The notes: a model not told the origin generated them from the letters alone. A stretch of DNA of 56,642 nt from Candidatus Paracaedibacteraceae bacterium (GCA_027328625.1 DAHVSZ010000001.1:1-56642), one strand, 5' to 3'. Positions 2,254-55,038 are shown, counted from the first letter of the stretch. Numbers and translations: made by a program.

Positions 2254-3296
2254 GTCAACTACACTCTCTTATCTTACAGGAAATCAAAGACAAAGGTTCA
2301 ATAACGGTAAAGCGATTTATGGAACTTGCTCTTTATCATCCTGAGTATGGATATTATGTTTCAGAAAAGGTTTTAGGCAAGCAAGGTGACTATATAACAG
2401 CACCTGAACTGACACAAGTATTTGGTGAATTATTAGCTTTATGGTTTGTTGATCTTTGGCACAGGCTTGGAAAGCCCGAATGTGTACAGCTAGTAGAATT
2501 AGGTCCAGGGCGTGGCTTGATGATGCAAGATATGCTTCGGATTTTTAAAAAGTTTCCAGATTTTTTTCAAAACCTTGATGTTTATTTAATGGAAGTTAGC
2601 TCAGTTTTGATGGCAGCTCAGCAAGCCATTTTAAAAGACGAACGTGTTTGTTGGGTCACAGATCTAAAAGATCTTCCTGAAAACAAGGTTACTTTTTTTG
2701 TGGCTAATGAATTTTTTGATGCTCTGCCAATTGAGCAGTATGTGGAAAATGAGGGTGATTGGGTAGAACGGTGTATTACGAGTAAGGATAGTGTTTTAGT
2801 GTTTGATTTGTCATACTCGGACTTGATCCGAGTATCCATGGACCCGCGTGTCGAGCACGAGGATGACAAAATGATAAAAGAAACATGCCCAGCATATGGC
2901 TATTATATGCAAGAAATAACACGACGCCTTTTAAAAAATCGAGGAGGGGCAATTATTATTGATTATGGTGACGACGTTCCAGTTGAAAGTCGAGTAGGAG
3001 ACACGCTGCAAGCGCTTTACCAACACAAAAGAACAGATGTGTTAGAAAACCCTGGTGAACAAGATTTAACTCACCATGTTAGTTTTGCTGCTTTGAAGCA
3101 CTATATAGATCCTAGTCTGAAGACAGAGATGTCAACACAAAGTGATTTTTTGTTTACATTGGGTTTAGAGCAGTGGGTTGAAAAGCTTTGCCTGAATCTT
3201 GATCCAGAAAATGCAGCCAAACTTAAAATAGCAGTAACACGTTTAGTAACTCCACGAGAAATGGGGAGGCTATTTAAGGTTTTGATAATTGAATAA
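2250..3296 (+). CDS. Class I SAM-dependent methyltransferase, NDUFAF7/MidA (DUF185) family
   Basis: Motifs YHPEYGYY, GDYITAPELTQVFGELLA, LVELGPGRGLMMQDMLR and IIDYG. The start overlaps the lgt stop (ATGA). Confidence 0.8.
   Translation: MSQLHSLILQEIKDKGSITVKRFMELALYHPEYGYYVSEKVLGKQGDYITAPELTQVFGELLALWFVDLWHRLGKPECVQLVELGPGRGLMMQDMLRIFKKFPDFFQNLDVYLMEVSSVLMAAQQAILKDERVCWVTDLKDLPENKVTFFVANEFFDALPIEQYVENEGDWVERCITSKDSVLVFDLSYSDLIRVSMDPRVEHEDDKMIKETCPAYGYYMQEITRRLLKNRGGAIIIDYGDDVPVESRVGDTLQALYQHKRTDVLENPGEQDLTHHVSFAALKHYIDPSLKTEMSTQSDFLFTLGLEQWVEKLCLNLDPENAAKLKIAVTRLVTPREMGRLFKVLIIE
2810..2867. repeat. 58-bp palindromic element copy lying in frame inside the methyltransferase CDS
   Basis: Hand alignment to the intergenic copy at 28974-29031 gives 47 of 58 identical positions. 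It has the same gtcat...atgac ends and hairpin tactcgga-cttga-tccgagta. Confidence 0.75.
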
Positions 3297-3515
3297 ATAA
3301 AATTACAATATTATAATTTAAAATTATTAATATTAACGATTAATTAGTATTTTAATGCTATTTTGATGGTTAAGAGGGCACTTATGCTTGGAGGATTTCG
3401 GCTGAGTGTGGCCGAAAAAACAATGCTTGGTGGCTTTTAAAGCTGCTTTTCTAGCCCTCGGGACCTGAGATGTATGGAATTGACTTGATATCAGTTGGTT
3501 GTATACATGATTTTG

Positions 3516-3533
3516 AACACTTTTAAAAGTGTT
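3516..3533. repeat. Perfect 18-bp palindrome aacacttttaaaagtgtt
   Basis: Read directly in the long intergenic region upstream of prfB. Confidence 0.7.
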
Positions 3534-3792
3534 GAAACTTTTGTGTTAACCATTTATTAAGGATTAAACAAGAGGTCAGGAAAGTATTGTTCTTGTGGAG
3601 GAGGAGGCGGGGGCCAAAACACTGTGGTGCTCAGGACGGGGGCCCCATCAGCCTAAGGCTATATCAAACTGTCAAAAAATCTCAAATCTTGACAGAAATT
3701 CCCCTCTAAGCCAGTACCACAACTATCCCCTCAATTTTATTTATCACCAAGTCCTCTATAAAATGGCATGGTTAAAAAAAGGGTATTAAAAA

Positions 3793-4903
3793 ATGCGTGC
3801 AGAAATTGAAACACAAGTGAAAGCTATTAATCAGTCTTTGGTACTCCTTCGGAGGCATCTTTGACTGGGACCAAGCTATAATAAGACTAGATGTTTTAAA
3901 CCAACAAGCTGAATCTCCAGATCTGTGGAATGACCAGGCTTCTGCTCAAAAGATCTTGAAAGAACGTGATTCATTGCAGGGTTCAATCAAACGCATTCAA
4001 GATTTTGAAAGGTCTTTAAAAGACAATGTTGAATTGATCGAACTTGCAGAGATGGAAGATGATCTAGAGGTTTTGGCAGAAGCTGAAAAGAGCTTGGAAC
4101 TATTAACCAAAGAGGCTGCGCGTCTACAGCTAGAAACGCTTCTTTCTGGTGAAGCAGACACTAATGATTGCTTTATCGAAATAAACGCAGGCGCAGGGGG
4201 GACAGAGGCTCAAGATTGGGCTCAAATGTTAGCACGCATGTACAGCCGTTGGGCTGAGGGGCGTAAATACAAATTAGAAATTTTAGATGAAAACCCAGGC
4301 GAAGAAGCTGGCATTAAATCCATCACTTTTAAGGTCATGGGACACCAAGCTTATGGTTGGTTAAAAACAGAAAGCGGCGTTCATCGATTGGTTCGTATTT
4401 CTCCCTTTGACTCAAACGCTAGACGTCACACCAGTTTTGCCTCAATTTGGGTTTATCCGGTAATTGATGATTCAATTGAAGTTGAGGTGGAAGAAAAAGA
4501 TTTAAGAATTGATACCTACCGGGCTTCCGGAGCAGGCGGGCAGCACGTTAATAAAACAGAAAGTGCTATTCGTATTACTCACAACCCAACTGGAATTGTG
4601 GTTCAATGTCAAAATGATCGATCTCAGCATCGTAACCGAGCCCAGGCTATGTCTATGTTAAAAGCTCGTTTGTACGAGTTAGAGCTTAGGAAAAGAGAAG
4701 AAAAGCTAAATAATCAATCAGCAAGCAAAACTGATATTGGTTGGGGGCACCAAATCCGGTCTTATGTTTTGCAGCCTTATCAAATGGTCAAAGACAATAG
4801 AACAGGTGTTGAACGGGGTAATGCTCACGGTGTTTTGGATGGTGATATTGATTGCTTTTTAGAAGCGGCACTAGCACAAAGAATTGGTGGAGAGGAAGAG
4901 TGA
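3793..4903 (+). CDS. prfB: Peptide chain release factor 2, expressed through a programmed +1 frameshift
   Basis: Frame 0 runs ATG 3793 [23 protein letters not shown] to TGA at 3862. The +1 frame from 3863 reads [22 protein letters not shown]... and joins track ORF 3956..4903, which carries SPF and GGQHVNK motifs. Confidence 0.93.
3851..3865 (+). promoter_or_regulatory. prfB autoregulatory frameshift site (SD-like GGAGG, then CTT TGA C)
   Basis: ggaggcat ctt tga c read at 3851-3865. This is the canonical RF2 shift-site architecture. Confidence 0.88.
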
Positions 4904-5109
4904 TGGATTACTACTTTTTCTTTCAAACCTAGTTTTTCCAATATTAATGCTGCTTCAGTATGGCTTTTTAACGAAAGGAGTAAAAAAAGAAACGAGAAAG
5001 AAACATAAAAAAAGGGGCTGTCCCAGATAACATGAAATAATGTTATAAGGATGGTATGAGAAAGAGCCAATCAAGCTCTTTTCAGTAAAAAAATGCAGGA
5101 CTCAACTAG

Positions 5110-5133
5110 ATTCCCGCCTCCGCGGGAATGACA
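5110..5133. repeat. Palindromic hairpin attcccgc-ctcc-gcgggaat followed by gaca
   Basis: Read directly, 10 nt downstream of the stop of the minus-strand gene 5143..6285. On the minus strand a T run follows about 17 nt later. Confidence 0.6.
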
Positions 5134-5142
5134 AGTGAATAA

Positions 5143-6285
5143 TTAAGCAGCAACTTCCTGACCATTGGCAATTGCCGACAGCGTTCTGGCAATCACTCTG
5201 ATTTCATTTCTAAGCTCTTGAGTTGATGATGTGCGGCCGGTCACCATTTCCTCTAAAAGCTTGGTTGATGTTGTGTCTAGACTCCGCAAGTGCTGACTAA
5301 TAACCTCATTAAGGGCTGCTTGACTTGGATTTCTTGTAGCCTGGATCAAACTTTCCTGTAAATCAATTTGATTTTGCGCAATTTTCTTCATCACATTTTG
5401 ATGCCCAGACATTTGATCAGCCATCATAGATAATTTTTCGCCTACGGTTTGCAAAGCTTTAATAACGCTTACACGGTTGTCTTCGGTACGACGCATTTGT
5501 GACTGTAGGTTTGCCATAGATTCAATTGTTTGTTCTAAAAGGCCTTGAGTATATGCAGGACCACTCCCTGTGGCTGCTGAAACCTCGGCAACTCCACTTA
5601 AACGAGTGTTAGCAGCTAGGCGCTCTTCAAGTGTGTGGTAAAAGCTGCTGCTCGCTTTACTAATTTGTAAATCAAGAAAACCAACGATCAGAGAGCTTGC
5701 GAGTCCAAACATTGATGAGCTGAACGCCATTCCCATTCCTGTTAAGGGAGATTGCAGACCTTGTTTTAGATTAGTGAAAGCATCTTTTATTTCACTTCCA
5801 CCCATATTAATACTGTTAATAACACCTGTTATGGCGCCAATTGTTTCAGAAAGTCCCCAAAAAGTCCCCAAAAGCCCTAAGAAAATCAAAAGACCAACAA
5901 GATAACGATTTAGATCACGGTTTTCATCTAGGCGTCCATCGACACTGGCTAGAATTGATCTTGCGGTTAGAGGGGCAATACTACCACTGTGGTTTGGATC
6001 ACTTAACAAAATGGCTAAAGGTGCCAAGATTTTTGCAACGGGTGCATCTGGAAATCTTTCTTTTCCTTGTTCAAAATTATCCAGCCAAGTTTGCTCTTGT
6101 TGTAAACGAAATAATTGAAAAAAAGATAAAACAACACCTAATCCTAGACATGAAAGAATAATTATGTTTAAAGCAAGATTGTGAAAAAAGATTTGCTTTA
6201 AAGATGGATAAAGAAACGCTGTGGTCGCTATGGCCAGAACGAGGAAAATTCCTATTCTCATTAAACAACGATGAATATAACTCAT
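5143..6285 (-). CDS. MotA/TolQ/ExbB proton-channel family protein with a long C-terminal coiled-coil-like tail
   Basis: There are N-terminal TM segments. Channel-core-like TM segments read LVGLLIFLGLLGTFWGL and GMGMAFSSSMFGLASSLIVGFLDL. About 160 aa of heptad-like, Q/E/L-rich sequence follow. Confidence 0.6.
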   Translation of the reverse strand: MSYIHRCLMRIGIFLVLAIATTAFLYPSLKQIFFHNLALNIIILSCLGLGVVLSFFQLFRLQQEQTWLDNFEQGKERFPDAPVAKILAPLAILLSDPNHSGSIAPLTARSILASVDGRLDENRDLNRYLVGLLIFLGLLGTFWGLSETIGAITGVINSINMGGSEIKDAFTNLKQGLQSPLTGMGMAFSSSMFGLASSLIVGFLDLQISKASSSFYHTLEERLAANTRLSGVAEVSAATGSGPAYTQGLLEQTIESMANLQSQMRRTEDNRVSVIKALQTVGEKLSMMADQMSGHQNVMKKIAQNQIDLQESLIQATRNPSQAALNEVISQHLRSLDTTSTKLLEEMVTGRTSSTQELRNEIRVIARTLSAIANGQEVAA

Positions 6286-6463
6286 AGATAAAAACCTTTG
6301 TTTTTTTTTAACTTAACTACTAGACTAACTTACTTTTGTTAAATCCAAAACTTTTTTTTAAAGTTTAGGGTAAAAAAATGAAGAGAAGATATATAGTTAA
6401 TAAATTATTAATTAAATAAAGTTATTTTCAAATGTTTTGAGTGTCGGAAAGTTCTTAAAAATC

Positions 6464-7378
6464 TTAAGTTTCTTTACCTTTTATTTTTATACGTACTGCT
6501 GCTGCTTTTGAGAGACGGAGAATAACTTGTTTTGGAACACGTAAATCGACAATAGAAGTTTCGTCTTTGCTAATTTTCTTTTGTTCAATCAAAAGAGAAA
6601 GGCGAGCTAATGCATCTTCGACACTATCCTCAGGAAGCTTCACAAGAATACTATTTTCAAGGCTTAAATCCCAACGACGTTGACGGATTCTTACAAGTGA
6701 ACTTAATCTCTTTCTAATTTCGGGAAATTTTTCAAGCAGTGCTAATATTTTTGGTGCATGGACTGGAGCATCTGCCCCAACGACAACAGGTAAGTGCTGA
6801 AATTGAGTAATGTTAGGACTTGTTATGACAATACCTTCTTGGTCAACCAAAAAGAAACTCTGCTGATGATGCCAAAGTGCTATGGGTTTGCGTTCAATCA
6901 TTTGAATATAGAGCAAATTAGGTAAGCGTCTTTGAACAGTTGCTGATTTAATCCAATCAATTTTTTCAAGATTTGATTTAATAGCTTCTAGATTGTAAGC
7001 AAGTATGGGGTGTCCCCTTTGGGCTTGAACGGCAGCTAAGACTGAATCCTGCGGTGAATGTTGACGTCCTTCCACAAAGACTTCATCAATGCGTAATCCT
7101 ATATGTGCTGAAAAAGCAATTGCTTTTTGTGAACAATAAACAAAGGCTGCTTGTGTGTATCCAAACCACGTACTACCTGCGCTTAATACAATTATAAGGC
7201 TAAAAAAACCAAAAATAAGAATCGGTCTATAATGGCTTCGATTCCATTTTGAACGGGACTTACGTATGGGATTTCGTTGCTTATTTTGGTTTTTTAAAAA
7301 AAAATAATTAATCCAACCAAAAGAAGATGAAGGGTTTTGATTCTTTGTTTGTCTTTGATTTGGCTTTAATGATGACAT
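6464..7378 (-). CDS. ftsQ: Cell division protein FtsQ
   Basis: It is the last gene of the dcw cluster after ddl. It has a basic N-terminus, a single TM segment, and a POTRA-like region (IDEVFVEGRQHSPQDSVLAAV). Confidence 0.85.
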   Translation of the reverse strand: MSSLKPNQRQTKNQNPSSSFGWINYFFLKNQNKQRNPIRKSRSKWNRSHYRPILIFGFFSLIIVLSAGSTWFGYTQAAFVYCSQKAIAFSAHIGLRIDEVFVEGRQHSPQDSVLAAVQAQRGHPILAYNLEAIKSNLEKIDWIKSATVQRRLPNLLYIQMIERKPIALWHHQQSFFLVDQEGIVITSPNITQFQHLPVVVGADAPVHAPKILALLEKFPEIRKRLSSLVRIRQRRWDLSLENSILVKLPEDSVEDALARLSLLIEQKKISKDETSIVDLRVPKQVILRLSKAAAVRIKIKGKET

Positions 7379-8286
7379 TTTGCTGCTCGAAGTTTTCTTT
7401 CAATGAGCTCACCGAAAGATATTCCAGCGTGCGCTGCAATTTCTGGAACTAAAGATAAAGGAGTCATGCCAGGCTGTGTATTTAATTCTAACAAATAAAA
7501 AGTTGGTTTATTCCCAGTATCATCATAACGGAAGTCAGAACGAGTTACACCATGACATCCAAGAGCTTTATGTGCTTTTAAAGCGAGCTCTAAGGATTCA
7601 TTGTATGCCTTTTCTGGTATATTAGCTGGCATTATATGTTGAGCTTTTCCTGGTGTGTATTTTGCTGTGTAATCATAAAATCCTTCAGAGGGGCAAATTT
7701 CAATGGCACCAATAGCTTCATCATCAATGACAGCAACATGAATTTCACGTCCCGGTATAAACTGTTCTATTAGGACTTGATCTCCATAACACCATTCTTT
7801 AATGCTAGTTTGAAGATCTTCATTTTTATAAACGATAGTAACGCCTCTACTTGATCCCTCGCCGATGGGTTTAATGACATAAGGGATATCCATTGGATGT
7901 CCATTTTTTAGTTCTTCAAAAGAGATAACTTTCCATGGAGGGGTTTGAATACCTATGTGTTGAAATATCTTGCGAGATAAAATTTTGTTCATAGCGAGAG
8001 CGGATGCGGTGACACCACAATGAGTATAAGGAATTCCTAACATTTCTAAGACTCCTTGAATCACACCGTCTTCACCACCAATGCCGTGGAGTGCATTGAA
8101 GATAATATCCGGCTTAGGATCAGATAATTCTTTTAATAGCTCAGGAAGATTGCGCTTTACATCGATGGCTCTAACAAAATACCCAAGGTCTTTTAATGCT
8201 TTTACAACACCTTCTCCTGAGGAGATTGAGACTTCGCGCTCAGATGACCATCCACCCATTAAAACAGCAATATTTTTTGACTTCAT
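7366..8286 (-). CDS. ddl: D-alanine--D-alanine ligase
   Basis: NIAVLMGGWSSEREVSISSG, LHGIGGEDGVIQGVLE and an ATP-grasp core, in dcw context. Confidence 0.93.
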   Translation of the reverse strand: MKSKNIAVLMGGWSSEREVSISSGEGVVKALKDLGYFVRAIDVKRNLPELLKELSDPKPDIIFNALHGIGGEDGVIQGVLEMLGIPYTHCGVTASALAMNKILSRKIFQHIGIQTPPWKVISFEELKNGHPMDIPYVIKPIGEGSSRGVTIVYKNEDLQTSIKEWCYGDQVLIEQFIPGREIHVAVIDDEAIGAIEICPSEGFYDYTAKYTPGKAQHIMPANIPEKAYNESLELALKAHKALGCHGVTRSDFRYDDTGNKPTFYLLELNTQPGMTPLSLVPEIAAHAGISFGELIERKLRAAKCHH

Positions 8287-8351
8287 TTACTAAACCTTTT
8301 ATTTAAACTAATTTTGGATAAAAATTGGCTACTTGTGCTATACAACAGCTT

Positions 8352-8375
8352 GGATCCTTGGGTCAAGCCCGAGAA
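8352..8375. repeat. Degenerate G-type palindromic element (ggatccttggg-tcaag-cccgagaa)
   Basis: Read directly in the ddl-murB intercistronic gap. It has the same loop as the other family members. Confidence 0.55.
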
Positions 8376-8391
8376 AGCTAGAGGTATTCAT

Positions 8392-9309: not shown

Positions 9310-9317
9310 ATAAGATC

Positions 9318-10823: not shown

Positions 10824-10847
10824 GAATAAATAATAGGAAATAAAGAC

Positions 10848-27264: not shown

Positions 27265-27296
27265 AAATATCAAAATATATAGTAGTCCGTCTCGTT

Positions 27297-27486
27297 ATCT
27301 TCGCACTTGTTGTACTATAGTGTACGAACGTTTTTAAACACTCCCTTCTAGTCTTCCTCCGGTTTAACCGGAGGATCCATTTTTGAACACGTGAAATGTA
27401 TAGACCCTATGGTCAAGCCATAGGGAAACTCGGGTACGTTAAGTTCTTGCACAACGCTCAAACACAAGTACAACAAGTGCGAGGAT
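27297..27486. mobile_element. MITE-like composite palindromic element (outer inverted repeat enclosing one S hairpin and one P hairpin)
   Basis: Outer arms are atcttcgcacttgttgtac (27297-27315) and gtacaacaagtgcgaggat (27468-27486). The S hairpin tcctccgg-tttaa-ccggagga lies at 27355-27375. The P hairpin ccctatgg-tcaag-ccataggg lies at 27405-27425. Confidence 0.7.
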
Positions 27487-27611
27487 CTAATAAAATACAT
27501 GGATACTCAGAACAAGTCCAAATATGACAATTGAGAGTTTGGAAGCTTATTGTGTCCGTAAGAAGAAAACTGCTAAGTTGGATCAAACATTAAAATTAGG
27601 AATGATTCAAA

Positions 27612-28924: not shown

Positions 28925-28973
28925 CAAATCTCATATTTAAGTACAGAATAGACTTCTTTCAAAACTTCACTTT

Positions 28974-29031
28974 GTCATCCTCGGACTTGTTCCGAGGATT
29001 TATGGATTTTTGTGTCGAGCACGAGAATGAC
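28974..29031. repeat. 58-bp palindromic element (G-type hairpin atcctcgga-cttgt-tccgaggat plus a distal arm ending cgagaatgac)
   Basis: Read directly downstream of the prepilin peptidase gene. Its paralog lies inside a CDS at 2810-2867. Confidence 0.75.
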
Positions 29032-29041
29032 AATGAGCGAT

Positions 29042-39419: not shown

Positions 39420-40754
39420 TTATCCAGGATATAAATCCATAGTCGCTATAGGAAGTTGGCTTAGAACAGCTTTAGCCGCTGCATGAACATTTTCTAAAGT
39501 AACAGCTTGAATATAGTCAGCCCATTTTTCAATTTGTTCAATTGTGAACCCACTAGAAAGACTTGTAAATACACTTAATGTGCTGTTATTTCCATCTCTA
39601 ATGAATGCGAGCTGTGCTAAAAGATCTCGTTTGGCTTTTCTGAGTTCTTCTTCAGAAACGCCTTTTTCTACAATATCTTTCAAATAATTAGCTAACGCTT
39701 GCTTAAAGATAGCAACATCCATATCTGGTGATAATGTCGCAGAAATTCCAAAAGGTCTAGGTTCATAACTATCTCCTTCATAACTGCTTCTAACGCTTAA
39801 AGCCAATTTTTTTTCTTCAACTAAAAGACGATAAAATTCGGTTGTGCTATTACCTCCCAAGATTTGAGACAAAACAATTAACGGGTAATAATGCTGAGTT
39901 TCACCAACTCGATGGTTGGGGGCAATGTAATACCAATTCAACATAATTAAAGAATTTCGAGGGTTTCTTTGTTCAATATGTTGAGTTATTCCTTGATGAG
40001 GAGGTTCAGCGAAACGCTGTCTTTTTGGAATTGGCCTGGAAGGTAGAGAGCCAAAATATTTCTCAACGATTGGTTTTACTTCTGCAAGATTTGTTTTCCC
40101 AGCAATGATAACAATTGCATTGTTGGGAGTATACCAAGTTTTGTAGTGATTTCTAACGGCTTCATATGAGTAGTTTTGAATATGATGAGGATATCCAATG
40201 GGCGGAATACCATAAGGGTGATACCAGCTCAAAGCTCTTAGTAAAACTTCATAAGCTTGGCCAAATGGATGATTTTCAACACGCATGCGTCGTTCTTCAA
40301 AGACAACATCCTTTTCTGATTTTATCTCTTCTTCTGTAAAGGAAAGATTGGCCATACGATCAGCTTCAAGCTTTAAAATAAGTTCCAAATATTCTTTTGC
40401 AATATCCGTTTCATAAATTGTGTAATCAAAGCTAGTGGCGGCATTGGTACTGCCTCCATGTTGCAAAATAATTTTTTTAAACTCTGATGTAGGGACATTT
40501 TTTGTTCCTTTAAACATCATATGCTCAAGAAAATGGGAGATGCCCATTAAGGGAAGAGGATCATCCGCTGTTCCAACTTTATATAAGATGCCAATGCTTA
40601 CAATGGGTGCTATATCATTTGGCACAACAATAATTTGAAGACCGTTTGGCAATGTATGAACTTCAGGATTGAAAATGCCAGCCATATTTTGTCCCATAAA
40701 AAAAGTTAAATAAACAATACAAAAACTAAAGAACTGTTTCATTCGAATTACCAA
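39420..40754 (-). CDS. M16 (pitrilysin) family zinc peptidase, catalytic subunit
   Basis: The inverted zinc motif HFLEHMMFKG is present. The signal-like N-terminus is MKQFFSFCIVYLTFF. The ATG at 40742 is the more likely start than the track TTG at 40754. Confidence 0.85.
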   Translation of the reverse strand: MVIRMKQFFSFCIVYLTFFMGQNMAGIFNPEVHTLPNGLQIIVVPNDIAPIVSIGILYKVGTADDPLPLMGISHFLEHMMFKGTKNVPTSEFKKIILQHGGSTNAATSFDYTIYETDIAKEYLELILKLEADRMANLSFTEEEIKSEKDVVFEERRMRVENHPFGQAYEVLLRALSWYHPYGIPPIGYPHHIQNYSYEAVRNHYKTWYTPNNAIVIIAGKTNLAEVKPIVEKYFGSLPSRPIPKRQRFAEPPHQGITQHIEQRNPRNSLIMLNWYYIAPNHRVGETQHYYPLIVLSQILGGNSTTEFYRLLVEEKKLALSVRSSYEGDSYEPRPFGISATLSPDMDVAIFKQALANYLKDIVEKGVSEEELRKAKRDLLAQLAFIRDGNNSTLSVFTSLSSGFTIEQIEKWADYIQAVTLENVHAAAKAVLSQLPIATMDLYPG

Positions 40755-40785
40755 CTAAACGCAGAGCACAAACTACTCCTCCCAA

Positions 40786-40874
40786 TTTTCTTCCGACTCG
40801 ATCGGAAGATCCATGAGATTAAATCCCAATCGAAAACAAATACATGGACCCTATGGTCAAACCATAGGGAAACT
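40786..40874. repeat. S-variant hairpin (cttccga-ctcga-tcggaag) plus P hairpin (ccctatgg-tcaaa-ccataggg), intercistronic
   Basis: Read directly in the 139-bp gap between the two co-oriented M16 peptidase genes. Confidence 0.75.
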
Positions 40875-40893
40875 AGAGTTTGATCGTTATGTT

Positions 40894-42291
40894 TCATTTT
40901 GCATCCGCTTTAGATTCAGAGCGACCTACAATAATGAATGTTAAAAGTTCTGGATGAAGAATCTTTTTAATCACTTGATTAACATTCTCAACCGTTAGTT
41001 TGCTAAAATAAAGATTTCGTTTTTCAACATAATCAATGGGTAAACTATCTTGTCTATAACGTGATAGTGCATTAACTGTCTCTAGGGTTGAACCAAATGA
41101 CAAAGGAAATGAACCCATGATGTTTTTTTTGTGAAAATCCAATTCTTCTTGAGTAACACCTTTTTCAATTAGCTTTTTCCATTCTTGTTTTATGACTGCA
41201 AGAGTTTCTTCCAAGCTCTCTGTCTTTGTAGCGGTCGCTCCAATCATTCCATTCGCTAAATCATTGGTGAATAAATCAAGATTACAGAAATAAGCAAGTC
41301 CTCGCTTTTCTCTAATTTCATTCCAAAGCCGTGATTCAAAATTCCCACTTCCTAAAATTCTTACTGCTAAGAATAAGGCATAAAAGTCAGGGTCTTGTCT
41401 GCTTATTCCTGGGTGAGCAAAGAAAATTAAACTTTGTGGAATGTCTAGATATACATTAAATATTTTACCTAAATTCTTAAGCTCAGTTGGTTGTGGAAGA
41501 GTTGTAGGCTCTCCTTTCGGTAGATCTGCTAAGCTTTTTTCAAGAAATTCGATAAGCTTTTCAGTATTAATATTTCCGCAGGCAACAATTTCTAAATTAG
41601 CTTGTGTAAAGTTCTTTTTCATTTGAGCTCGCAACTGCTCAGCTTGAATCGTTGGAATAACTTTAATACGTTCAGACGTTCTTTTAAAATAAGGGTGTGT
41701 TTCACCTAAAAGGTGTTTTTGTAATTCTTCTTTTGCAATTGGCTGTGGGTGATGAAGTGATTGTTGTAATCCCGCAATCATTTGTTGTTTAACGCGTTGC
41801 ATGTCTTCGTCTGAAAATCGTGGGGAAGACAAAATAAGTTTTATGAGTTCTAAAGCATCATTCACATTCTCTTTAACAGTGCGAAAAGTGATTGTAAAAT
41901 TATCTTGTGAGGAAGAAACAGATAGACTGATGTTCTTTTCAAGTAATAATTTCTTAAAGGATTGGCTATCATAAGGGCCTGCGCCTTCATCTAAAAGAGC
42001 CGCAATTAAATCTGTTAAACCAGGAAAATCAGAAGGCGAGCTTCTATCTCCTGCATTTCTAAAAGTAAGAGCCATACTCACAACAGGAATACTTGTTGGT
42101 ACAAACCAAATAGATTTTCCAAGGTTTGTCTTAAGCTCTTTTACGGAAATCGGAGATGTTGTCATAGAATCCTGCGTATGTGATATTGGGTGTTTAGTCG
42201 TGGTTTTTAGCCATGATTTATTTGAAAAGCTTACAAACAACGCTAAAGCTATTCCACAAAGCCCTCCTAGTAATAAAATCCTTTTTTTCAT
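40894..42291 (-). CDS. M16 family peptidase-like protein, non-catalytic partner (no HxxEH motif)
   Basis: It has M16 N and C domain-like length and layout plus a signal or anchor segment. The zinc motif is absent from the translated sequence. Confidence 0.75.
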   Translation of the reverse strand: MKKRILLLGGLCGIALALFVSFSNKSWLKTTTKHPISHTQDSMTTSPISVKELKTNLGKSIWFVPTSIPVVSMALTFRNAGDRSSPSDFPGLTDLIAALLDEGAGPYDSQSFKKLLLEKNISLSVSSSQDNFTITFRTVKENVNDALELIKLILSSPRFSDEDMQRVKQQMIAGLQQSLHHPQPIAKEELQKHLLGETHPYFKRTSERIKVIPTIQAEQLRAQMKKNFTQANLEIVACGNINTEKLIEFLEKSLADLPKGEPTTLPQPTELKNLGKIFNVYLDIPQSLIFFAHPGISRQDPDFYALFLAVRILGSGNFESRLWNEIREKRGLAYFCNLDLFTNDLANGMIGATATKTESLEETLAVIKQEWKKLIEKGVTQEELDFHKKNIMGSFPLSFGSTLETVNALSRYRQDSLPIDYVEKRNLYFSKLTVENVNQVIKKILHPELLTFIIVGRSESKADAK

Positions 42292-45302: not shown

Positions 45303-46343
45303 TTATCTTAATGATTGATTTAGAGTGATTTTGATTGAAGGATTATCCGTTTGAATTTTGTCACACTTTAGCCAACTATTGTAGCCGAGTGCAAATTTTC
45401 GATTAAGCATGACAGGTTTGATATCGAAACGATTAAGTTTCAAACGCAAATGAATTTGGGTATTCATTCCGATAAAAAAATAACTTAGTTCCTTTAATAA
45501 TGAAAAAGTTGTTACAACATTAGATGATGCAGGTGTTGGTAAAAATGAACAATATTCATTCCATGATAATGGGCCAATCGCGATACTAGCAGCCGCAGTT
45601 TGATCCCAACATTTTTTGCCCAAAATCATATTTTTTCCTAATTCATTAAATTGTCCTTTTTTAGAACCAATTTTACTTAGGTCATGCGCATGCGCTTCAC
45701 GCCAAGCCCCTTCAAACTGTTCAATAACGACGGGAACATTAAAATAACTTTTGATAAGTCTTAATAACCCTGCGCCTGAATGTGGTCTTTTCCAGATAAT
45801 ATCGTGATAGCTCATTAATATTTGAGGACTAATCTTTAAACCTTGAAGCAAATTAGGGTGAGCAATGCCAGCAATTTGAAGTAAAGTCTTTCCTATAGGA
45901 GCATCTTGAGGAGGGGCTTGCAAAACACCAGGCATAATTTTCTTGCGAAGACGGTGCCAGAACGTTGCTAAGCGATGATTAAAAATATCTAGAAAATCCC
46001 GAAACCCTGTGTCTTTTTGTCTTGTTCTATCAATGACAGTTTCTGTATATGGAGTTGGCAGAGGGCCTTGTATTCCAGCAATACTTAGAAAGTTGATCCA
46101 TAATATTGGTTTTTGGTCTGGTTCTTGTTGCAGAGATTGAAGTTCACTTGTTGGGATAGCAAAGCTTACATGTGATTTTATTTGAATCGCTTCATTTTGA
46201 GGATCAGTTTCACTGCCCAAAGGAGTGGCGCCAGGATCTAACTGTTCTAATATGTTAATCGCTTGATCAAAGTCAAATTCCTGTGGGGATTTTAATAATC
46301 CTTCTTTTACAGGAGGATTTTCTCGCCAGGTAATGGTTGCCAT
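45303..46343 (-). CDS. tssG: Type VI secretion system baseplate subunit TssG (ImpH/VasB family)
   Basis: LLKSPQEFDFDQAINILEQ, FLSIAGIQGPLPTPYTE and FRDFLDIFNHRLATFWHRL match the family signature segments as I recall them. Confidence 0.8.
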   Translation of the reverse strand: MATITWRENPPVKEGLLKSPQEFDFDQAINILEQLDPGATPLGSETDPQNEAIQIKSHVSFAIPTSELQSLQQEPDQKPILWINFLSIAGIQGPLPTPYTETVIDRTRQKDTGFRDFLDIFNHRLATFWHRLRKKIMPGVLQAPPQDAPIGKTLLQIAGIAHPNLLQGLKISPQILMSYHDIIWKRPHSGAGLLRLIKSYFNVPVVIEQFEGAWREAHAHDLSKIGSKKGQFNELGKNMILGKKCWDQTAAASIAIGPLSWNEYCSFLPTPASSNVVTTFSLLKELSYFFIGMNTQIHLRLKLNRFDIKPVMLNRKFALGYNSWLKCDKIQTDNPSIKITLNQSLR

Positions 46344-48136
46344 TTTATATACTCATTTGGTCTATCAGTTTTTATCATTACAAGCTCAACAAAAGAATTT
46401 AAGGAAACACTTAATGCAAAATAATGTCGTAATACAGATGCTAATAGGAAATTAGAATTTCCGGTTTCTGACAATGTTTCCATTTCCATGACAATTTGAA
46501 TTCCTTCGACAAATCCTCTCCATGCTTCAAGGCCAAATCTCCTCACAATTTTGTTTGTTTTGAGAGATTTTATATTATCAATTTCATGTTGTTTGTATGT
46601 GTGAGTTGATCCTGAATAGAGTTTTAAACTCTCCTTTAAAATGTTGAGAGCTTCTTTATTTCCTGTTAACGGAAGGTGATTGACCGAAAGCTGTGAGATA
46701 AGGCGCCATAATGTTTCACCATCTGCTGGAGAATATTCTTGGGGAACAGGCTTATCTAGACATACAATTTTACTGATTGGAACCGCTTCTTCAATTTGCA
46801 ATTCGGCACCTTGTGGTAATTGTTCTGCTAAAAATCTATTGGTACATAAGGTATGAGCGTAAACAATCTGATGAGGGGGTAAAGCTGGGTTAAATTGTAA
46901 GTCTACAAAAGACAGATATACATCTGTACCAGGTAAATCACGTTCTTCAGCAGAAGTTCTTTTTGCTGTCCAATATACAGTATCTTTTAAAGATATATGC
47001 TGATGATTAAAAGAAAAATACGGTGAAAAAGTTTGTGGTTCTTGATTTCCTTCAACAGCGGCAGCCACTTTCAGAATCCGATATATTTCTGTTGTTTTGT
47101 CACGCCGTTGGTCCGGCACAAGTCGGTAACGGATTTTTCTTTTTGTTAAACGTTGTGGTTCAGTAATTTTTTTAAACAAATTAACAATAGGTGTACATCC
47201 TAGCAAAAAGTTATTAGGGCTTAGTTTTTTTTGCAAAATTTCTTGTACACCTTTTAATGAAATCAAAAGTTCAAATACATTTGTATCTAAATTTAAATTG
47301 TCAGGAAGTTTGTTCAAATGCTTTATCTTGAAGAAAAGAAATTTTTCTGGTAGGTGAAAATATTCTTGTAGCAATTGATATGCATGCGTTGAGTATTCAG
47401 GAATAGGAAGAGTCATTTCATCTCTATTAAACCCGATAGGTGTGAGCGAATCATCGGGAAGAGTATGTGCTGTTTGACCATCAACAGAAACATAAACCGA
47501 AGGATGAACTTGAGAAAATAGGCTTTCATATATATCCAAGCTTAAAATGCGTTCGCCTCTAATATGAAATTGTAATTCATCTAGATTGAGAGCACCTAGT
47601 GATGCCCCTTGAGTTTCAATTGTGAGACGTAAAAACCAGTTGTCATCTTTACTTTTTCCAACCAAGGTGAATGCATCTTTTGGAACAATGGCAACTTTTT
47701 TAAGTTTTATAGGCCATAACGTTAGAGGATAAATAGTTTGGAAACGACAAGAGACATCTTTTTCAGAGTAAGCAAATAGTGGTGTTTCTTTTGGAATATT
47801 ATAGCCCTTTGTTAGTTTTCCTTTTGTTGGATCCACTTGGAATTGGGCAATAGACATGGAAGGAATTGGGTTCACAAGATGTGGATAAAGAACTTCGAGT
47901 AATGCTGCAGCAGTTTCAGGAAATCTATCATCAATTTCCTGGCTTAAGCGAGCCGTCATGAAAGCAAATGATTCCAATAAGCGTTCCGTATGAGGGTCAG
48001 GGGATTCCTTTTCGCTTAATTCTAGTCGGCGAGCAATTTTAGGATGTTGCTTGGCGAAAATTTTTCCTGAATTTCGAAGATATCGAAGCTCATTATTGTA
48101 GTAATTTAGGAACCGATCGCGTGCATTTCGAAACAA
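46307..48136 (-). CDS. tssF: Type VI secretion system baseplate subunit TssF (ImpG/VasA family)
   Basis: RFLNYYNNELRYLRNSGKIFAKQHPKIARRLEL, DPHTERLLESFAFMTARL and LLEVLYPHLVNPIPSM match the family. TTG start with ggag 9 nt upstream. The 3' end overlaps tssG by 37 nt. Confidence 0.85.
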   Translation of the reverse strand: MFRNARDRFLNYYNNELRYLRNSGKIFAKQHPKIARRLELSEKESPDPHTERLLESFAFMTARLSQEIDDRFPETAAALLEVLYPHLVNPIPSMSIAQFQVDPTKGKLTKGYNIPKETPLFAYSEKDVSCRFQTIYPLTLWPIKLKKVAIVPKDAFTLVGKSKDDNWFLRLTIETQGASLGALNLDELQFHIRGERILSLDIYESLFSQVHPSVYVSVDGQTAHTLPDDSLTPIGFNRDEMTLPIPEYSTHAYQLLQEYFHLPEKFLFFKIKHLNKLPDNLNLDTNVFELLISLKGVQEILQKKLSPNNFLLGCTPIVNLFKKITEPQRLTKRKIRYRLVPDQRRDKTTEIYRILKVAAAVEGNQEPQTFSPYFSFNHQHISLKDTVYWTAKRTSAEERDLPGTDVYLSFVDLQFNPALPPHQIVYAHTLCTNRFLAEQLPQGAELQIEEAVPISKIVCLDKPVPQEYSPADGETLWRLISQLSVNHLPLTGNKEALNILKESLKLYSGSTHTYKQHEIDNIKSLKTNKIVRRFGLEAWRGFVEGIQIVMEMETLSETGNSNFLLASVLRHYFALSVSLNSFVELVMIKTDRPNEYIKWQPLPGEKILL

Positions 48137-49017: not shown

Positions 49018-49026
49018 AAGTAGCGC

Positions 49027-49746: not shown

Positions 49747-49856
49747 ATTAATAGTTTTTTAACAATATCAACTATAATTAAATACTATCATTCAATTGTT
49801 AATTTATGATGAATTATGAAAAAATATTTTCAGATCTGACTTTTAAACAAAAACAC

Positions 49857-52745
49857 TTATTTGCTGTTAACTATAGCGTCTCTCTCCACGTAAGGTTTCA
49901 AATACTGCCCAGTATAACTTGTTTTAACTGTTGCTACATCCTCTGGCGTACCAACGGCGACAACTTTGCCGCCTTTGGCACCGCCTTCTGGCCCCATATC
50001 GATAATCCAGTCAGCAGTTTTAATGACTTCTAGGTTATGTTCAATGACAACCACTGTGTTACCTTGGTCAACTAGCGTGTGAAGTACCTCTAATAATTTT
50101 CTCACATCCTCAAAATGCAAACCCGTTGTGGGTTCATCCAAAATATAAAGCGTACGCCCAGTAGCTCTTCGTGCCAATTCTTTAGACAACTTGACACGCT
50201 GTGCTTCACCACCCGACAAAGTGGTTGCTTGTTGCCCCACATGAATGTAACCAAGCCCAACTTGCTCTAAACTTTTTAATTTATCCCGCACTTGTGAGTG
50301 AGCATTGAAAAACTCAACAGCTTCTTCAACAGTCATGTCCAAAACATCAGCAATTGTTTTGTCCTTGTAAGTAATCTCTAAAGTTTCACGGTTGTAACGT
50401 TTGCCCTGGCATTGATCACATTGCACGTATACATCTGGTAAAAAGTGCATTTCAATTTTAATGACGCCATCACCTTGACATGCTTCACACCGTCCCCCTT
50501 TCACATTGAATGAAAAACGCCCAGGACTGTATCCTCTGGCCTTGGCTTCAGGAAGCCCAGCGTACCACTCACGAATAGCTGTAAAACAACCAATGTACGT
50601 TGCTGGGTTAGAGCGGGGTGTTCTACCAATGGGTGATTGATCAATATCAATCACTTTATCAATGTATTCCATCCCCAACAGTTTTTTGTGAGGGCCTGGC
50701 AGATCACGACCGTGATTAAAGACACGCGCTAAAGCTTTATATAAAGTTTCAATGACAAGGGACGACTTACCACCACCAGAAACACCTGTCACACAAGTAA
50801 ATGTACCAAGCGGGATCTTGACGGAAACATCTTTAAGGTTGTTTGCCTTTGCCCCTATTAATTCAAGGCAGCGACCTTCATGTCCCAGGCGACGATGTTC
50901 TGGCAAAGCAATATAGCGTTTTCCTGTTAAATATTGTCCCGTAATACTTTCTTTTGAATCCATAATGTCTTGAGGGGTGCCTTGAGCGATAATTTCGCCG
51001 CCGTGAATACCAGCAGCAGGGCCCATATCAATCACATAGTCGGCTGTTCGAATAGCGTCTTCGTCATGTTCAACAACAATCACAGTGTTGCCAATGTCAC
51101 GAAGATGTTTCAATGTGCTCAGCAAACGATCATTATCACGTTGATGTAAGCCTATTGATGGCTCATCTAAAACATATAGTACTCCAGTTAAACCGGAACC
51201 AACCTGTGATGCTAAGCGAATACGCTGACTTTCCCCGCCCGATAAAGTACCAGAAGAACGAGATAAAGATAAATAATCCAACCCCACATTCACCAAAAAG
51301 CTGAGGCGGCTATTAATTTCTTTTAAAATGCGAGCAGCAATTTCTTGTTGTTTTTTAGAAAGCTCTAATTTTTGAAACCAATCAAGAGCATTAGCAATAG
51401 ACAACTCACACACATCAGCAATGGTTTTTTCATTGATTTTAACACATAAAGCTTCTGGCTTAAGGCGCTGGCCATTACAAACAGAACAAGGATGTTCGTT
51501 TTGAAAACGAGACAGAGTTTCCCTTACCCAATCGCTTTCCGTTTCTTTCCAACGACGTTTGAGATTGGGGATTACTCCTTCAAATGCTTTTTTGGTGATG
51601 TAGTTGCGAACTCCATCATTAAATTGGATAGGAACAACCTCTTTACCTGTGCCATACAAGACAGCATTCTTTACATGATCAGGCAGTTCACCAAAGGGTA
51701 AGACTGGTGAGGCATCATAATATTTGACAACGGCTTCTAATACTTGGTTGTAATATTCTCTTGAATAAGAACTGCGTCTGCTGGTTTGTGAATCATCGCT
51801 CCAAGGAAGAATTGCCCCTTCACGAATACTTTTACTTAGATCTGGAATAATTAAAGACGGGTCAAAGACAATCTCAATGCCAAGACCATCGCAAGCGGGG
51901 CAGGCTCCTTGAGGGCTGTTGAAAGAAAACAGCCTTGGTTCGATTTCATCCAAGGTAAATCCAGACACAGGACAGGCAAACTTAGCTGAAAAGGTAGTGG
52001 TTGATCCATCATCAACATTTTCAAGCCATATTAACCCATCGCTTAAATAAAGACCTGTTTCTAAAGAATCAGCAAGGCGCGTTTTCCATTCTGTTTGTTG
52101 GTCAACCTCAGGCACAACCAGGCGATCAACAACAACAGCAATGTCATGTTTTATATTCTTTTTAAGGTCAGGAACATCATCTAGATCATAAACTTTGCCG
52201 TCGATTTTAACGCGTTGAAACCCTTTTTTCTTTAAATCTTGTAGTTCTTTTTTGTACTCACCTTTACGACCTCGGGCAATGGGTGCCATTAATAAAAGTC
52301 GAGTTTTCACGGGCATTGCCAAAATGCGATCAACCATTTGACTAACAGTTTGCGCTTCGATTGGCAAACCCGTTGCAGGAGAGTGAGGAATGCCTACACG
52401 GGCATATAAAAGCCTTAAGTAATCGTAAAGCTCAGTAACTGTACCAACGGTTGAACGCGGGTTTTTGGAAGTCGTTTTTTGCTCAATGGAAATAGCCGGA
52501 CTTAGCCCATCAATTGAATCGACATCTGGTTTTTGCATGAGTTGCAAAAATTGACGAGCATAGGCAGAAAGACTTTCCACATAGCGACGTTGTCCCTCAG
52601 CATAAAGGGTGTCAAAGGCAAGCGAAGACTTACCAGAGCCACTAAGACCAGTGATGACCACAAGTTTATCACGCGGCATATCGACATTGATGTTTTTTAA
52701 ATTATGTTCGCGAGCACCACGAATGCTGATTTGATGAAGTGTCAT
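49857..52745 (-). CDS. uvrA: Excinuclease ABC subunit A
   Basis: [46 protein letters not shown], two ABC modules and zinc-finger cysteines. I place the start at ATG 52745. The track start at 52805 uses an ATG that lies inside a repeat. Confidence 0.95.
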
Positions 52746-52800
52746 ATATATTTTTAAATAAAAAGAAGTTGGACTAGTTATAGCAAGGTTTAATGTCTCT

Positions 52801-53008
52801 GTCATCCTTGGGCTTGCCTCACTGTTGTTTGAACATTGAACAGCAACTTCGTTCCATAGTTTTCCTCCGGCTTGACCGGAGGATCCATAACGAAGAATCT
52901 TGGTGTTTGAAGCATGGACCCTATGGTCAAGCCATAGGGAAACTGAGATGAGTTAAGTTTTTTGTTCAACGCTCAAACATTAGTGGGCTTGACTTCTACA
53001 AGGATGAC
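52801..53008. mobile_element. Composite: a TIR-bounded S-P element (52820-52985) sitting inside a split G-type palindrome
   Basis: The outer arms are gtcatccttg (52801-52810) and caaggatgac (52999-53008). The inner 22-nt arms are cactgttgtttgaacattgaac and gttcaacgctcaaacattagtg, complementary at 18 of 22 positions by hand count. The S hairpin lies at 52860-52886 and the P hairpin at 52916-52944. Confidence 0.6.
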
Positions 53009-53072
53009 AGCCGTTAGTTTGTTAGTATTTCAGTGATACTTGGTACTATATTTCCTTTTTTCTTTACCACTT

Positions 53073-53099
53073 GTCATCCTCGGGCTTGACCCGAGGATC
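53073..53099. repeat. Intact G-type hairpin gtc-atcctcggg-cttga-cccgaggat-c
   Basis: Read directly: a perfect 9-bp stem with a 5-nt loop. Confidence 0.85.
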
Positions 53100-53268
53100 T
53101 AAAAAACATAGTTGATGGCAATGGGGGGCTTGAAAGAACTTTATTATAAAATAATTCATATACAGTAAATTTTGTATGTAGACATAAATCTAAATAAGTC
53201 GTAAATTTCATCATGCTTTATTTAGAAATTAAAATAAAAAATGGCTGAAAGGAGCCGATATAAATAAA

Positions 53269-54927
53269 ATGAATAAAATTTTAAGAAATACAATACTCAG
53301 TCTTTGTTTGACCAGTTGCCTGGCGATGGGGATGGATGATGGGGATGGCGGTGCGGTTGTTGAACCAGCGACACGACCTGCGACAGCGACGACGGATGCA
53401 CGTCTGCCCACCGAAGAACTCAGAAGGAACGCTGCTGTTGTGCCTGTTGAAGTTGTGCCAGGAAGGTGGTTTGGGAAAGCTAAATTTAAGGGTCCTAATG
53501 GAGATATGCAGTATCAAAACACTGACAACCTTCTTATGGCATTCGGATGCGCTCTCGGCCAAGCAGGAGTTCTTGAAAAAGCAGTAAAAGAAGAAAGACA
53601 ACGAACAGATGTTCTTGCAGCAACAAACCAGATATTGAATAATGACCTAAGAGGGGTTACAGCGCAACTTGCTGCTGCAAAGGAAGAAGGCAAATCACAA
53701 ACTCAAAGACTACAAGATTTAGCAGACCGTTTAGCAGGGACAGAAACTGCTCTCGAAAAACAAAGGAAAGCTACCATAGATGCTATGTGGATTTCTTCTA
53801 CTATCGAGAGAGAGCTTGCCCTGGCAAAACAAAAAGAAGAAGATCTGGAAAGACGGCTTACAGCTGCAAATTTGGAAAATGAATCGAGGCTAAGAGATTT
53901 AACAGCTCGTTTGGAAGCGACAGAAAGAGCTCTTGAGGAACAAAGGAGACAGGCTGCCGCAGCTACTGAGACTACTTCCGATGTCAAACAAGCCCTTGCT
54001 TTGGCCGCACAGAGAGAAAAAACTTTAGAAGAGCAATTGTTAATAGCAAGGAGTGCCGCTGAAGTAAGATTACAAGAACTAAGGGAATTAAGCACAACTC
54101 TCACGAGCACATTAAGTGAACTTGCATCAACAAGGTCAGCTGCTGGAACCAACCAAAGACTGGTAGATATGATGAGAGAAGAGGCTGGAGTAAAAGAACA
54201 ATTATTGGGTTCTTTGAAAGAAAGATTGCTTCAATTCCAACGACAGCTACGTGTGGTGGTCACAAGTGATCATCCTGTTGAGGATTTAGATTCAGCACGT
54301 AAGTTTGTTGTGGGTGAATATCAAAAAGAGAAAGACGCTTTAGAGAGAGAGCTTGCGGCTCAGCGTGGTACTCTTTTACAAGCGCGAGAAGAACACAAAC
54401 GCTTGACAAAACAACGTGGAGAAAGCACTTCCTCGAATTTAGAAGAACTTATTGCACAAGCAGCTACCAGAATCCAACGCCTGCAAGCAGATGTTGAAAC
54501 AAAAGAGAGACACTTGAGTACTTTGACAACTGAGAAAACAGAGCTTGAGAGAGAAATAGAAGCTCTAGAGACAAAATCGGTGGGTGATTTTATAAAGGCT
54601 GTGCGAGCTGATAAGTTACTAGAATTAAAGGCATTTGAACAGTTTTCGGAGCTTGCGCGAAGAGGACATAATCATAGGTGGGCACATGGTGCAGGCTTAA
54701 GTAAGGGATCGCAATGGTTAGGTGAAGAACTTGTGAGAAAAATGGGCAAAGATGCAGCGTTACAGCTGTTGACTACTGGAGGTCTTTCGAGAGAAATGGC
54801 TGAATGGTTTATTTCTGATGACTCACAAGAGGCCATTCGTGATCACGGAAAAGGAACACTTGTTGGAACTAAAGCGGCGGATGAAGCTAATTGGACGAAA
54901 CTCAAAGCACGTTTTGGTGTTGCTTAA
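53269..54927 (+). CDS. Coiled-coil lipoprotein-like protein with 60-aa tandem repeats; compositionally atypical
   Basis: The N-terminus MNKILRNTILSLCLTSC carries an LTSC lipobox. Long heptad-like E/R/L/A/Q-rich sequence follows. Repeats lie at 53707-53886 and 53887-54066. I recognise no family. Confidence 0.6.
   Translation: MNKILRNTILSLCLTSCLAMGMDDGDGGAVVEPATRPATATTDARLPTEELRRNAAVVPVEVVPGRWFGKAKFKGPNGDMQYQNTDNLLMAFGCALGQAGVLEKAVKEERQRTDVLAATNQILNNDLRGVTAQLAAAKEEGKSQTQRLQDLADRLAGTETALEKQRKATIDAMWISSTIERELALAKQKEEDLERRLTAANLENESRLRDLTARLEATERALEEQRRQAAAATETTSDVKQALALAAQREKTLEEQLLIARSAAEVRLQELRELSTTLTSTLSELASTRSAAGTNQRLVDMMREEAGVKEQLLGSLKERLLQFQRQLRVVVTSDHPVEDLDSARKFVVGEYQKEKDALERELAAQRGTLLQAREEHKRLTKQRGESTSSNLEELIAQAATRIQRLQADVETKERHLSTLTTEKTELEREIEALETKSVGDFIKAVRADKLLELKAFEQFSELARRGHNHRWAHGAGLSKGSQWLGEELVRKMGKDAALQLLTTGGLSREMAEWFISDDSQEAIRDHGKGTLVGTKAADEANWTKLKARFGVA
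53707..54066 (+). repeat. Two full 180-bp (60-codon) tandem repeats inside the coiled-coil gene, with a partial third starting at 54067
   Basis: Unit 1 is RLQDLADRLAGTETALEKQRK...LENES. Unit 2 is RLRDLTARLEATERALEEQRR...SAAEV. RLQELREL... follows. Confidence 0.7.
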
Positions 54928-54945
54928 GTTTTTCCTGCTCCATTC

Positions 54946-55038
54946 AGTTTCCCTATGGCTTGACCATAGGGTCCATTCTTCAACTTTCGTTTTGGTAAAA
55001 GTACACTCTGGATCCTCCGGTTAAGCCGGAGGAAAACT
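54946..55038. repeat. P hairpin (54946-54974) and S hairpin (55010-55038), both in reverse orientation
   Basis: agtttccctatgg-cttga-ccatagggtcc ... ggatcctccgg-ttaag-ccggaggaaaact. The S copy overlaps the last codons and the stop of gene 55021..56262. Confidence 0.8.

Follow-up and report, generated by a model that had tools for sequence, protein, structure and literature searches.

Why should a bacterial genome be sown with short hairpins whose stems seem unrelated but whose loops agree, and what reads them? The question is posed by a stretch of 56,642 nt from Candidatus Paracaedibacteraceae bacterium (GCA_027328625.1, DAHVSZ010000001.1:1-56642), here called the window, which has a GC content of 37.8 % and to which all coordinates below refer. 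An original prediction had distinguished at least three stem types, S, P and G among them, on a common CTTGA or TCAAG loop, and had suggested that the hairpin is selected for recognition by a protein, naming an HUH/RAYT single-strand transposase as a candidate. The observation is real but was partly misdescribed: the prediction was right about recognition by a protein and wrong about the protein. Judged by the features of their sequence, the S, P and G hairpins belong to a known family, the CGTC-tagged REPs, for which the names Ssn-related motifs (SRM) and NTS-like repeats are also in use, and they are probably recognised as single-stranded DNA by a cognate GIY-YIG nuclease, Ssn.

The hairpin unit

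Every copy in the window follows one 35-nt plan, consisting of a tag (TGTC or AGTT), a stem arm (A/T)YCCTNNGG, the loop CTTGA, the complementary arm and a tail C-CAT. The stems had been said to share no sequence. However, S (TCCTCCGG), P (CCCTATGG) and G (TCCTCGGG) have YCCT..GG in common, together with the flanks xGTy and T-C-CAT, and are therefore variants of a single unit. What distinguishes them is confined to the two middle stem pairs (CC, AT or CG) and the outer pair or pairs, and at these positions both sides of the stem co-vary. Nor are S and P separate elements, as had been supposed; they invariably make up the arms of a single inverted doublet, which occurs six times with arm starts 30-62 nt apart.

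Each position at which a hairpin had been reported does carry one. The degenerate pattern YCCTNNGGCTTGACCNNAGGR, allowed up to three mismatches, matches the window 17 times against an expectation of 0.18, a number equalled in 0 of 100 shuffles, and a covariance model trained on 20 units finds 21, the addition being a degenerate unit at 27497-27531. A truncated S-like remnant (AGTGGATCCGGTCAAGAGGCATGAAAACT) at 37686-37715 lies below the model's threshold. The common loop is also borne out. Of 21 perfect hairpins with 5-nt loops and stems of 7 bp or more, eight have CTTGA or TCAAG and most of the others a one-base variant, and in the 21 units the loop is invariably 5 nt long, being CTTGA in 11, one base off in nine and two bases off in one. 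The tag is less uniform: TGTC in six units, AGTT, AGTC or AGTG in S and P, and AATT or TAGC in three, with only GT common to them. Stems of the six TGTC units start and finish as AT...AT; S and P keep the eight inner pairs and have T-T at the ninth position. A C stands immediately 3' of the palindrome in 19 of the 21 units, and the tail is CCAT, CCAA or CCAG in 14 and CTAT, CTAA or CTCA in five more. Most units are paired, six times as S-P heterodimers, twice as TGTC doublets and once as a P-variant pair, leaving three single; the two TGTC doublets are the G units at 2810 and 28974, each of which has a degenerate second arm and so spans 63 nt.

The compensatory changes noted originally hold up on the unit alignment, where 94 % of cells are paired and double-sided changes occur in seven of the eight pairs. 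The covariation score is equalled in 0 of 500 shuffles, and all slid controls collapse. Folded as single-stranded DNA, single units reach -8 to -10 kcal/mol (z -3.6 to -6.3), and the doublets form two separate hairpins with a tag-tag helix closing them, not one long hairpin. These results bear on whether the units might instead be read as double-stranded DNA by a dimeric protein that binds them, or serve as mobile promoters. The unit is indeed palindromic, and most units contain CTTGAC, the loop plus one base, which we take to be the rhizobial -35 consensus. Yet the middle stem positions vary freely and stay complementary, which is what a hairpin predicts and not what half-site recognition predicts; no conserved -10 box lies at a fixed distance from the units; and SsnA, the Neisseria nuclease of this family, is inactive on double-stranded DNA (PMC11893778). 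A role of this kind is scarcely credible. CTTGAC as a -35 box was dropped as a candidate, having no supporting feature and having the stem covariation against it.

A hairpin that is maintained as a hairpin could also act in RNA, as a 3'-UTR stabiliser, a terminator or a translational regulator. Many copies do lie directly downstream of genes or within operons, the 3' stem arm reads GGAGGA or GAGGA with CAT or ATG after it on one or other strand, and Di Nocera et al. regard many REPs as transcribed (PMC3733652). However, no T-run follows the stem, and the units are oriented either with or against transcription and are found as doublets, in gaps between divergent promoters and within coding sequence. 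Rfam shows nothing in the window at gathering or permissive thresholds beyond generic matches to miRNA-like long hairpins, and the known partner protein, SsnA, does not bind RNA (PMC11893778). An RNA-level function is improbable as the explanation of the family, and any RNA effect of the units would be secondary.

The repeat family and its nuclease genes

The same hairpins are widespread. The degenerate pattern, applied to one genome per species, matched at least 119 loci, mostly in Alphaproteobacteria of 55-72 % GC; Rhizobium, Agrobacterium, Shinella, Devosia, Brevundimonas, Martelella, Mesorhizobium and Nitrobacter are among the hosts in the matches listed. Among the genome loci listed the consensus is cGTCA-TCCTCGGG-CTTGA-CCCGAGGA-TCCAt, often in inverted pairs, and the CTTGA loop appears on other stems as well. 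A metagenome scan for the AGTT-type head gave, among the matches listed, about one-third of loci with a GC below 47 %. Searches of the literature with fragments of the repeat sequence returned nothing relevant. The features of the repeats match those of the CGTC-tagged REPs of Di Nocera, De Gregorio & Rocco (2013, BMC Genomics 14:522). In that paper (PMC3733652) these are described as having a tag CGTC, TGTC or CCTC, an 8-9 bp stem in which complementary A-T residues take up the first two positions, a loop of 4-5 nt drawn from few sequence types and an unpaired tail CCA; they form dimers, often heterodimers, and intragenic copies occur. The original prediction had named a match to a characterised repeat with a functionally irrelevant loop as grounds for its refutation. 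This holds in part: it is indeed an already described family, but irrelevance of the loop is no part of that outcome.

Clustering the open reading frames (ORFs) that neighbour the repeats exposed a small GIY-YIG protein, so that the link to a nuclease was reached independently of its publication. Among the repeat-seeded genome loci listed, all five GIY-YIG ORFs have adjoining CTTGA-loop hairpins; three of the five have them on either side, and the hairpins show four different stems among them. An independent sample of 14 loci was drawn by tblastn of plasmid records, on protein similarity only. CGTC-type repeats adjoin the cd10448-type GIY-YIG gene (ssn) in all 11 alphaproteobacterial loci of this sample (10 by the strict scan, with Azospirillum having 4-nt loops), and the nearest repeat is less than 100 nt from the gene in 10 of the 11. 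The stems differ by genus (ATCCTCGGG, ATCCCAGGG, ACCCCGGG, GCCCCGTG and ATyCCTGTG). Aeromonas and Planktothrix ssn loci showed no repeats in the 5-nt-loop scan. Hairpins also flank both sides of all six ssn genes among the metagenome loci listed, L191 and L207 being two of these loci; two of the six genes are of low GC. On one further contig (L266, GC 0.39) the unit AGTC-CCCTATGG-TTTAA-CCATAGGG-TCCAG lies 15 nt upstream of the ssn start and has exactly the P stem of the window.

The GIY-YIG family found here is, by sequence comparison, the published Ssn family, since the sample includes an SsnA homologue of N. gonorrhoeae that is surrounded by NTS repeats and the Ssn protein of the 39 %-GC contig L266 is 52 % identical to it (E 1e-33). 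A search of PDB sequences with the Ssn protein gave only WD40 matches without a significant stretch, which were treated as spurious. Two loci of the plasmid sample are worth recording for their own sake. On plasmid AZO_p3 of Azospirillum lipoferum 4B (L133, 686-979) the ssn gene has CGTC-1-type doublets on both sides and lies between sufB and sufC, which looks like insertion into an operon. In S. meliloti Ak57 (CP090106.1; L131, 60-1050), the ssn gene lies amid arrays of ATyCCTGTG hairpins whose loops are CTCGT/ACGAG; this record is labelled pSymB but is 3.7 Mb long, which suggests a mislabelled chromosome.

The biochemistry of these enzymes is known from Chenal et al. (2025, Nat Commun 16:2388; PMC11893778). 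SsnA, a GIY-YIG protein of 94 aa, binds the NTS of Neisseria only in its single-stranded DNA form and cleaves a few bases upstream of it; it does not bind RNA and does not act on double-stranded DNA. Binding is strand-specific and depends on sequence as well as structure. No base is more critical to it than the C immediately 3' of the palindrome, and cleavage is sensitive to the three bases upstream of the palindrome. Motifs were found near 71 % of ssn homologues, and a Wolbachia homologue cuts its own motif. The suggestion that the hairpins are under selection for recognition by a protein thus agrees with the published single-stranded DNA binding by Ssn, although the protein that had been named is the wrong one.

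That named protein, the RAYT transposase (HUH Y1) that mobilises REP and REPIN elements, has in its favour a strong general resemblance: short hairpins, inverted doublets, extragenic positions and many copies, together with the mobilisation of REPIN doublets by RAYTs in other bacteria (PMC5581495). But the gene consistently flanked by the hairpins is that of the GIY-YIG nuclease. The tags are TGTC or AGTT, and no unit has GTAG. A phmmer search with E. coli RayT against six-frame ORFs of the window and of the 119 repeat-bearing loci listed (~0.9 Mb) found nothing. Di Nocera et al. report that CGTC repeats have no dedicated transposase and never flank tyrosine-transposase genes (PMC3733652), and RAYTs are rare in Alphaproteobacteria (PMC5581495). 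On these four grounds of tag, gene search, literature and host the HUH/RAYT proposal is unsupported, and mobilisation by a RAYT is very improbable here.

Insertions, copies and annotation

Comparison with relatives shows that the repeats have inserted in this lineage, in one case in frame, as judged from two sites that are empty in relatives. The first is in the Methyltransf_28 (NDUFAF7/MidA-like) gene at 2250-3296, where a 63-nt doublet adds 21 codons in frame; this insert (LSYSDLIRVSMDPRVEHEDDK), 21 residues long, is missing from all 11 aligned homologues, including one at 71 % identity that was read at the DNA level. The left arm of this doublet is a TGTC-type unit, TGTC-ATACTCGGA-CTTGA-TCCGAGTAT-CCAT (2807-2841, + strand), and the degenerate right arm has the stem ATCCTCGTG and the loop CTCGA (2836-2870, - strand). 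The second site lies between two M16 peptidase genes that overlap or abut in three relatives and are parted in the window by a 146-nt insert with an S-P doublet. Its S variant has the stem TCTTCCGA and the loop CTCGA (40782-40816, +), and its P arm the loop TTTGA (40842-40876, -). A perfect 9-bp direct duplication, TGTTTCATT, brackets the insert; its left copy (40735-40743) holds the ATG of the downstream gene and its right copy (40890-40898) holds the stop codon of the upstream gene, both of which are preserved. No clear target duplication was seen at the other insertions in the window. Contigs L120-L123 are from the same strain as the window (at least 99.9 % identity) and are uninformative on insertion polymorphism. 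The gap between peptidase and rplS genes offers a further difference: it has a P-S pair in the window, whereas in a relative at 89 % protein identity the pair found there is of TGTC type and its loops are CTTGT. These pairs of filled and empty sites are direct evidence of repeat movement, a question left open by published work. A side observation comes from a relative's protein P0003, 67 % identical to the product of 2250-3296, whose annotated N-terminal extension holds the repeat-derived peptide SLDPRNKSEDD; that relative therefore also has the family in this gene neighbourhood, but at another position.

Doublets with inverted ends, empty sites in relatives and a perfect 9-bp duplication at one insertion are what would be expected of MITEs (miniature transposable elements with inverted repeats) of a DDE-type insertion sequence, with the hairpins as terminal inverted repeats and the duplication as the target-site duplication. 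However, no transposase gene lies between such ends in ~1.6 Mb of repeat-bearing loci, all-against-all clustering of the neighbouring ORFs brought out no recurrent transposase, and the other insertions have no clear duplication. The stem covariation, too, favours selection on a hairpin over a double-stranded transposase-binding site. An origin as DDE-type MITEs is accordingly given little credence.

Recognition by a cognate Ssn remains the probable explanation, and a course of events can be sketched by analogy with the Neisseria and Wolbachia enzymes. When the DNA becomes single-stranded, for example in replication, repair or DNA uptake, the hairpin would be bound strand-specifically by the cognate GIY-YIG nuclease of ~95 aa, which would nick a few nucleotides 5' of the tag. 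The repeats have themselves spread in the lineage, into intergenic DNA, between overlapping genes and in frame within a gene. Since the insertions are of these three kinds, the units behave like gene-less derivatives of a hairpin-ssn-hairpin arrangement.

Four points weigh against recognition by Ssn as an account of the units. The 56.6-kb window has no ssn gene, and we infer that this organism encodes the cognate nuclease. The S and P units depart from the CGTC definition in having AGTT for CGTC or TGTC and a T-T mismatch at the first stem position. The positions most critical in Neisseria are outside the loop (PMC11893778), and the conserved CTTGA loop here is a candidate recognition feature. 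Finally, a hydrolytic nuclease by itself explains neither copy-and-insert spread nor a 9-bp target duplication. The duplication (40735-40743 / 40890-40898) is in its own right unexpected from a simple nuclease.

A more novel reading is that hairpin-ssn-hairpin might be a true mobile element and the S-P and TGTC doublets its non-autonomous copies, which would spread through GIY-YIG cutting of single-stranded hairpin DNA. The empty sites, the 9-bp duplication, insertion at the centres of local palindromes and the presence of different subfamilies in one gap of two close relatives are compatible with such an element, and Chenal et al. raised an insertion sequence-like architecture as a hypothesis only (PMC11893778). 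If true, it would constitute a route of transposition or homing without an HUH, DDE or serine/tyrosine recombinase. We regard it as rather unlikely.

The remaining copies are scattered through convergent, co-directional and divergent gaps, within operons and within genes, in either orientation relative to transcription, which bears out the variety of contexts first reported (convergent gaps, the insides of operons, the region upstream of asd, coding sequence). A single variant unit, TAGC-TTTCTCGGG-CTTGA-CCCAAGGAT-CCAA, lies between ddl and murB (8348-8382, -). Between ctrA and sodB there is an S-P doublet, with an S arm having the loop TTTAA (27348-27382, +) and a P arm (27398-27432, -). The additional unit found by the covariance model (27497-27531, -; 27.2 bits, E 2e-6) is a degenerate TGTC type, TGTC-ATATTTGGA-CTTGT-TCTGAGTAT-CCAT. 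The convergent gap before tlc holds the second 63-nt doublet, with a TGTC-type left arm having the loop CTTGT (28971-29005, +) and a degenerate right arm (29000-29034, -). An S-P doublet without a spacer occupies a divergent gap (S arm 37507-37541, +; P arm 37537-37571, -); an 80-aa ORF for a PhdYeFM-type antitoxin (37873-38115) adjoins it. Directly after the rplS stop codon, in a convergent gap, is an S unit with the loop TTTGA (39328-39362, -), whose partner is a P-like unit with a one-base bulge (39379-39414, +), the tags of the two facing inward. The top-scoring unit of the window is an S arm at 52856-52890 (+), paired with a P arm at 52912-52946 (-). It is followed by the canonical single TGTC-type unit, TGTC-ATCCTCGGG-CTTGA-CCCGAGGAT-CTAA (53070-53104, +), the core of which is the consensus of the high-GC Alphaproteobacteria. 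Last, a convergent gap contains a doublet of a P arm (54944-54978, +) and an S arm with the loop CTTAA (55006-55040, -); the S hairpin encloses the last codons (55021-55033) of a dicarboxylate-symporter gene (55021-56262, minus strand). A 552-aa ORF at 53269-54927, without a Pfam or NCBIfam match, has repeat units on both flanks.

Three of the S-P doublets (within 27290-27490, 37470-37615 and 52801-53015) are central in long inverted repeats whose outer arms, of 12-57 nt, are locus-specific. At the third of these, a 215-nt palindrome, the outer left arm is half of a TGTC-type unit (GTCATCCTTGGGCTTG...; 52801-52826, +) and the outer right arm runs GGGCTTGAC...CAAGGATGAC (52985-53015, -). The central location of the three doublets may stem from insertion into palindromes that were already there. 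A longer repeat family that would include the outer arms of the ~200-nt palindromes was considered and rejected, as these arms recur nowhere else.

The units also have consequences for annotation, explaining a false asd extension and a doubtful uvrA start codon as well as accounting for the 21-residue methyltransferase insert and for the separation of two peptidase genes that formerly overlapped. Upstream of asd lie a P unit (35666-35700, +) and a variant unit with the stem TTCTTTGG/CCAAAGGG and the loop CTTGG (35721-35755, -). The latter is the source of 41-46 extra N-terminal codons in the asd ORF, and the extension is false, as first proposed, because the family match begins only at residue 47 and the gene caller gives a product of 350 aa. 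Similarly, the first ATG of the uvrA ORF is in the GTCAT end of a repeat arm (52801-52805, in the outer left arm of the 215-nt palindrome), and the family match begins at residue 24.

As for the surroundings of the repeats, the window encodes CtrA, a Tlc NTP/ADP translocase, the dcw cluster, asd and uvrA, and no tRNAs were found in it; among named organisms it is closest to Finniella, Odyssella and Paracaedibacteraceae. The contig comes from a metagenome and is present in two MAGs. Two ORFs, of 346 and 609 aa (45303-48136), correspond by synteny and length to TssG and TssF of type VI secretion in the relatives (L126, L128 and L129), and the genome also has a Tlc ATP/ADP translocase. CTTTGAC with a preceding GGAGG at 3859-3865 is the classical +1 programmed frameshift site of prfB (RF2), which is why the RF2 ORF at 3956-4903 is without its N-terminal part.

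Comparison with known systems

The closest described repeats are the CGTC-tagged REPs, in particular CGTC-2 to CGTC-4. The window units resemble them in the 5' tag (TGTC, in six units), in a stem of 8-9 bp that starts with AT in the TGTC units, in a 5-nt loop of constant type and in a CCA-like tail, and also in the inverted dimers and heterodimers, in mostly alphaproteobacterial hosts (obligate intracellular ones included) and in copies within genes, repair genes among them. The unit at 53070-53104 has a core that agrees exactly with the consensus obtained from Rhizobium, Agrobacterium, Devosia, Brevundimonas and others. What differs is the host, an uncultured low-GC (38 %) lineage related to Paracaedibacteraceae that is outside the survey of Di Nocera et al., and the assignment is at the level of the family, by described features. 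The hosts of CGTC/SRM repeats are thereby extended to a low-GC and probably intracellular lineage, in which the coexistence of canonical TGTC units with an AGTT head and its T-T mismatch would provide a useful natural test of what Ssn nucleases read.

With the NTS/SRM-Ssn system the window units share an oriented hairpin whose palindrome has conserved bases on its 5' side and a C immediately 3' (19/21). The repeat in that system flanks a gene for a single-domain GIY-YIG protein of ~95 aa in many genomes, as is seen for the present hairpins. The Neisseria NTS differs in having an 8-bp stem (ATTCCCGC) and a 4-nt loop in place of the CTTGA loop. The role shown in Neisseria is the restriction of transformation, which may not apply to a bacterium that is probably intracellular.

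The Rickettsia palindromic elements (RPE) are alike in their in-frame insertion into conserved genes of an intracellular alphaproteobacterium, represented here by the 21 codons in Methyltransf_28. The classical RPE-1, of ~150 bp, is a longer and different element. The link to RPEs rests on the equation by Di Nocera et al. of RPE-4 with CGTC-4 and of RPE-6 with CGTC-1; Neisseria dRS3 is also equated there with CGTC repeats (PMC3733652).

The REP/REPIN-RAYT systems of Gammaproteobacteria are alike in outline, since there too a gene is flanked by hairpin repeats and many gene-less inverted doublets are dispersed in intergenic DNA. However, the tag in those systems is GTAG and not CGTC, TGTC or AGTT, and the enzyme is an HUH tyrosine transposase, whereas the enzyme encoded beside the present hairpins is a GIY-YIG hydrolase.

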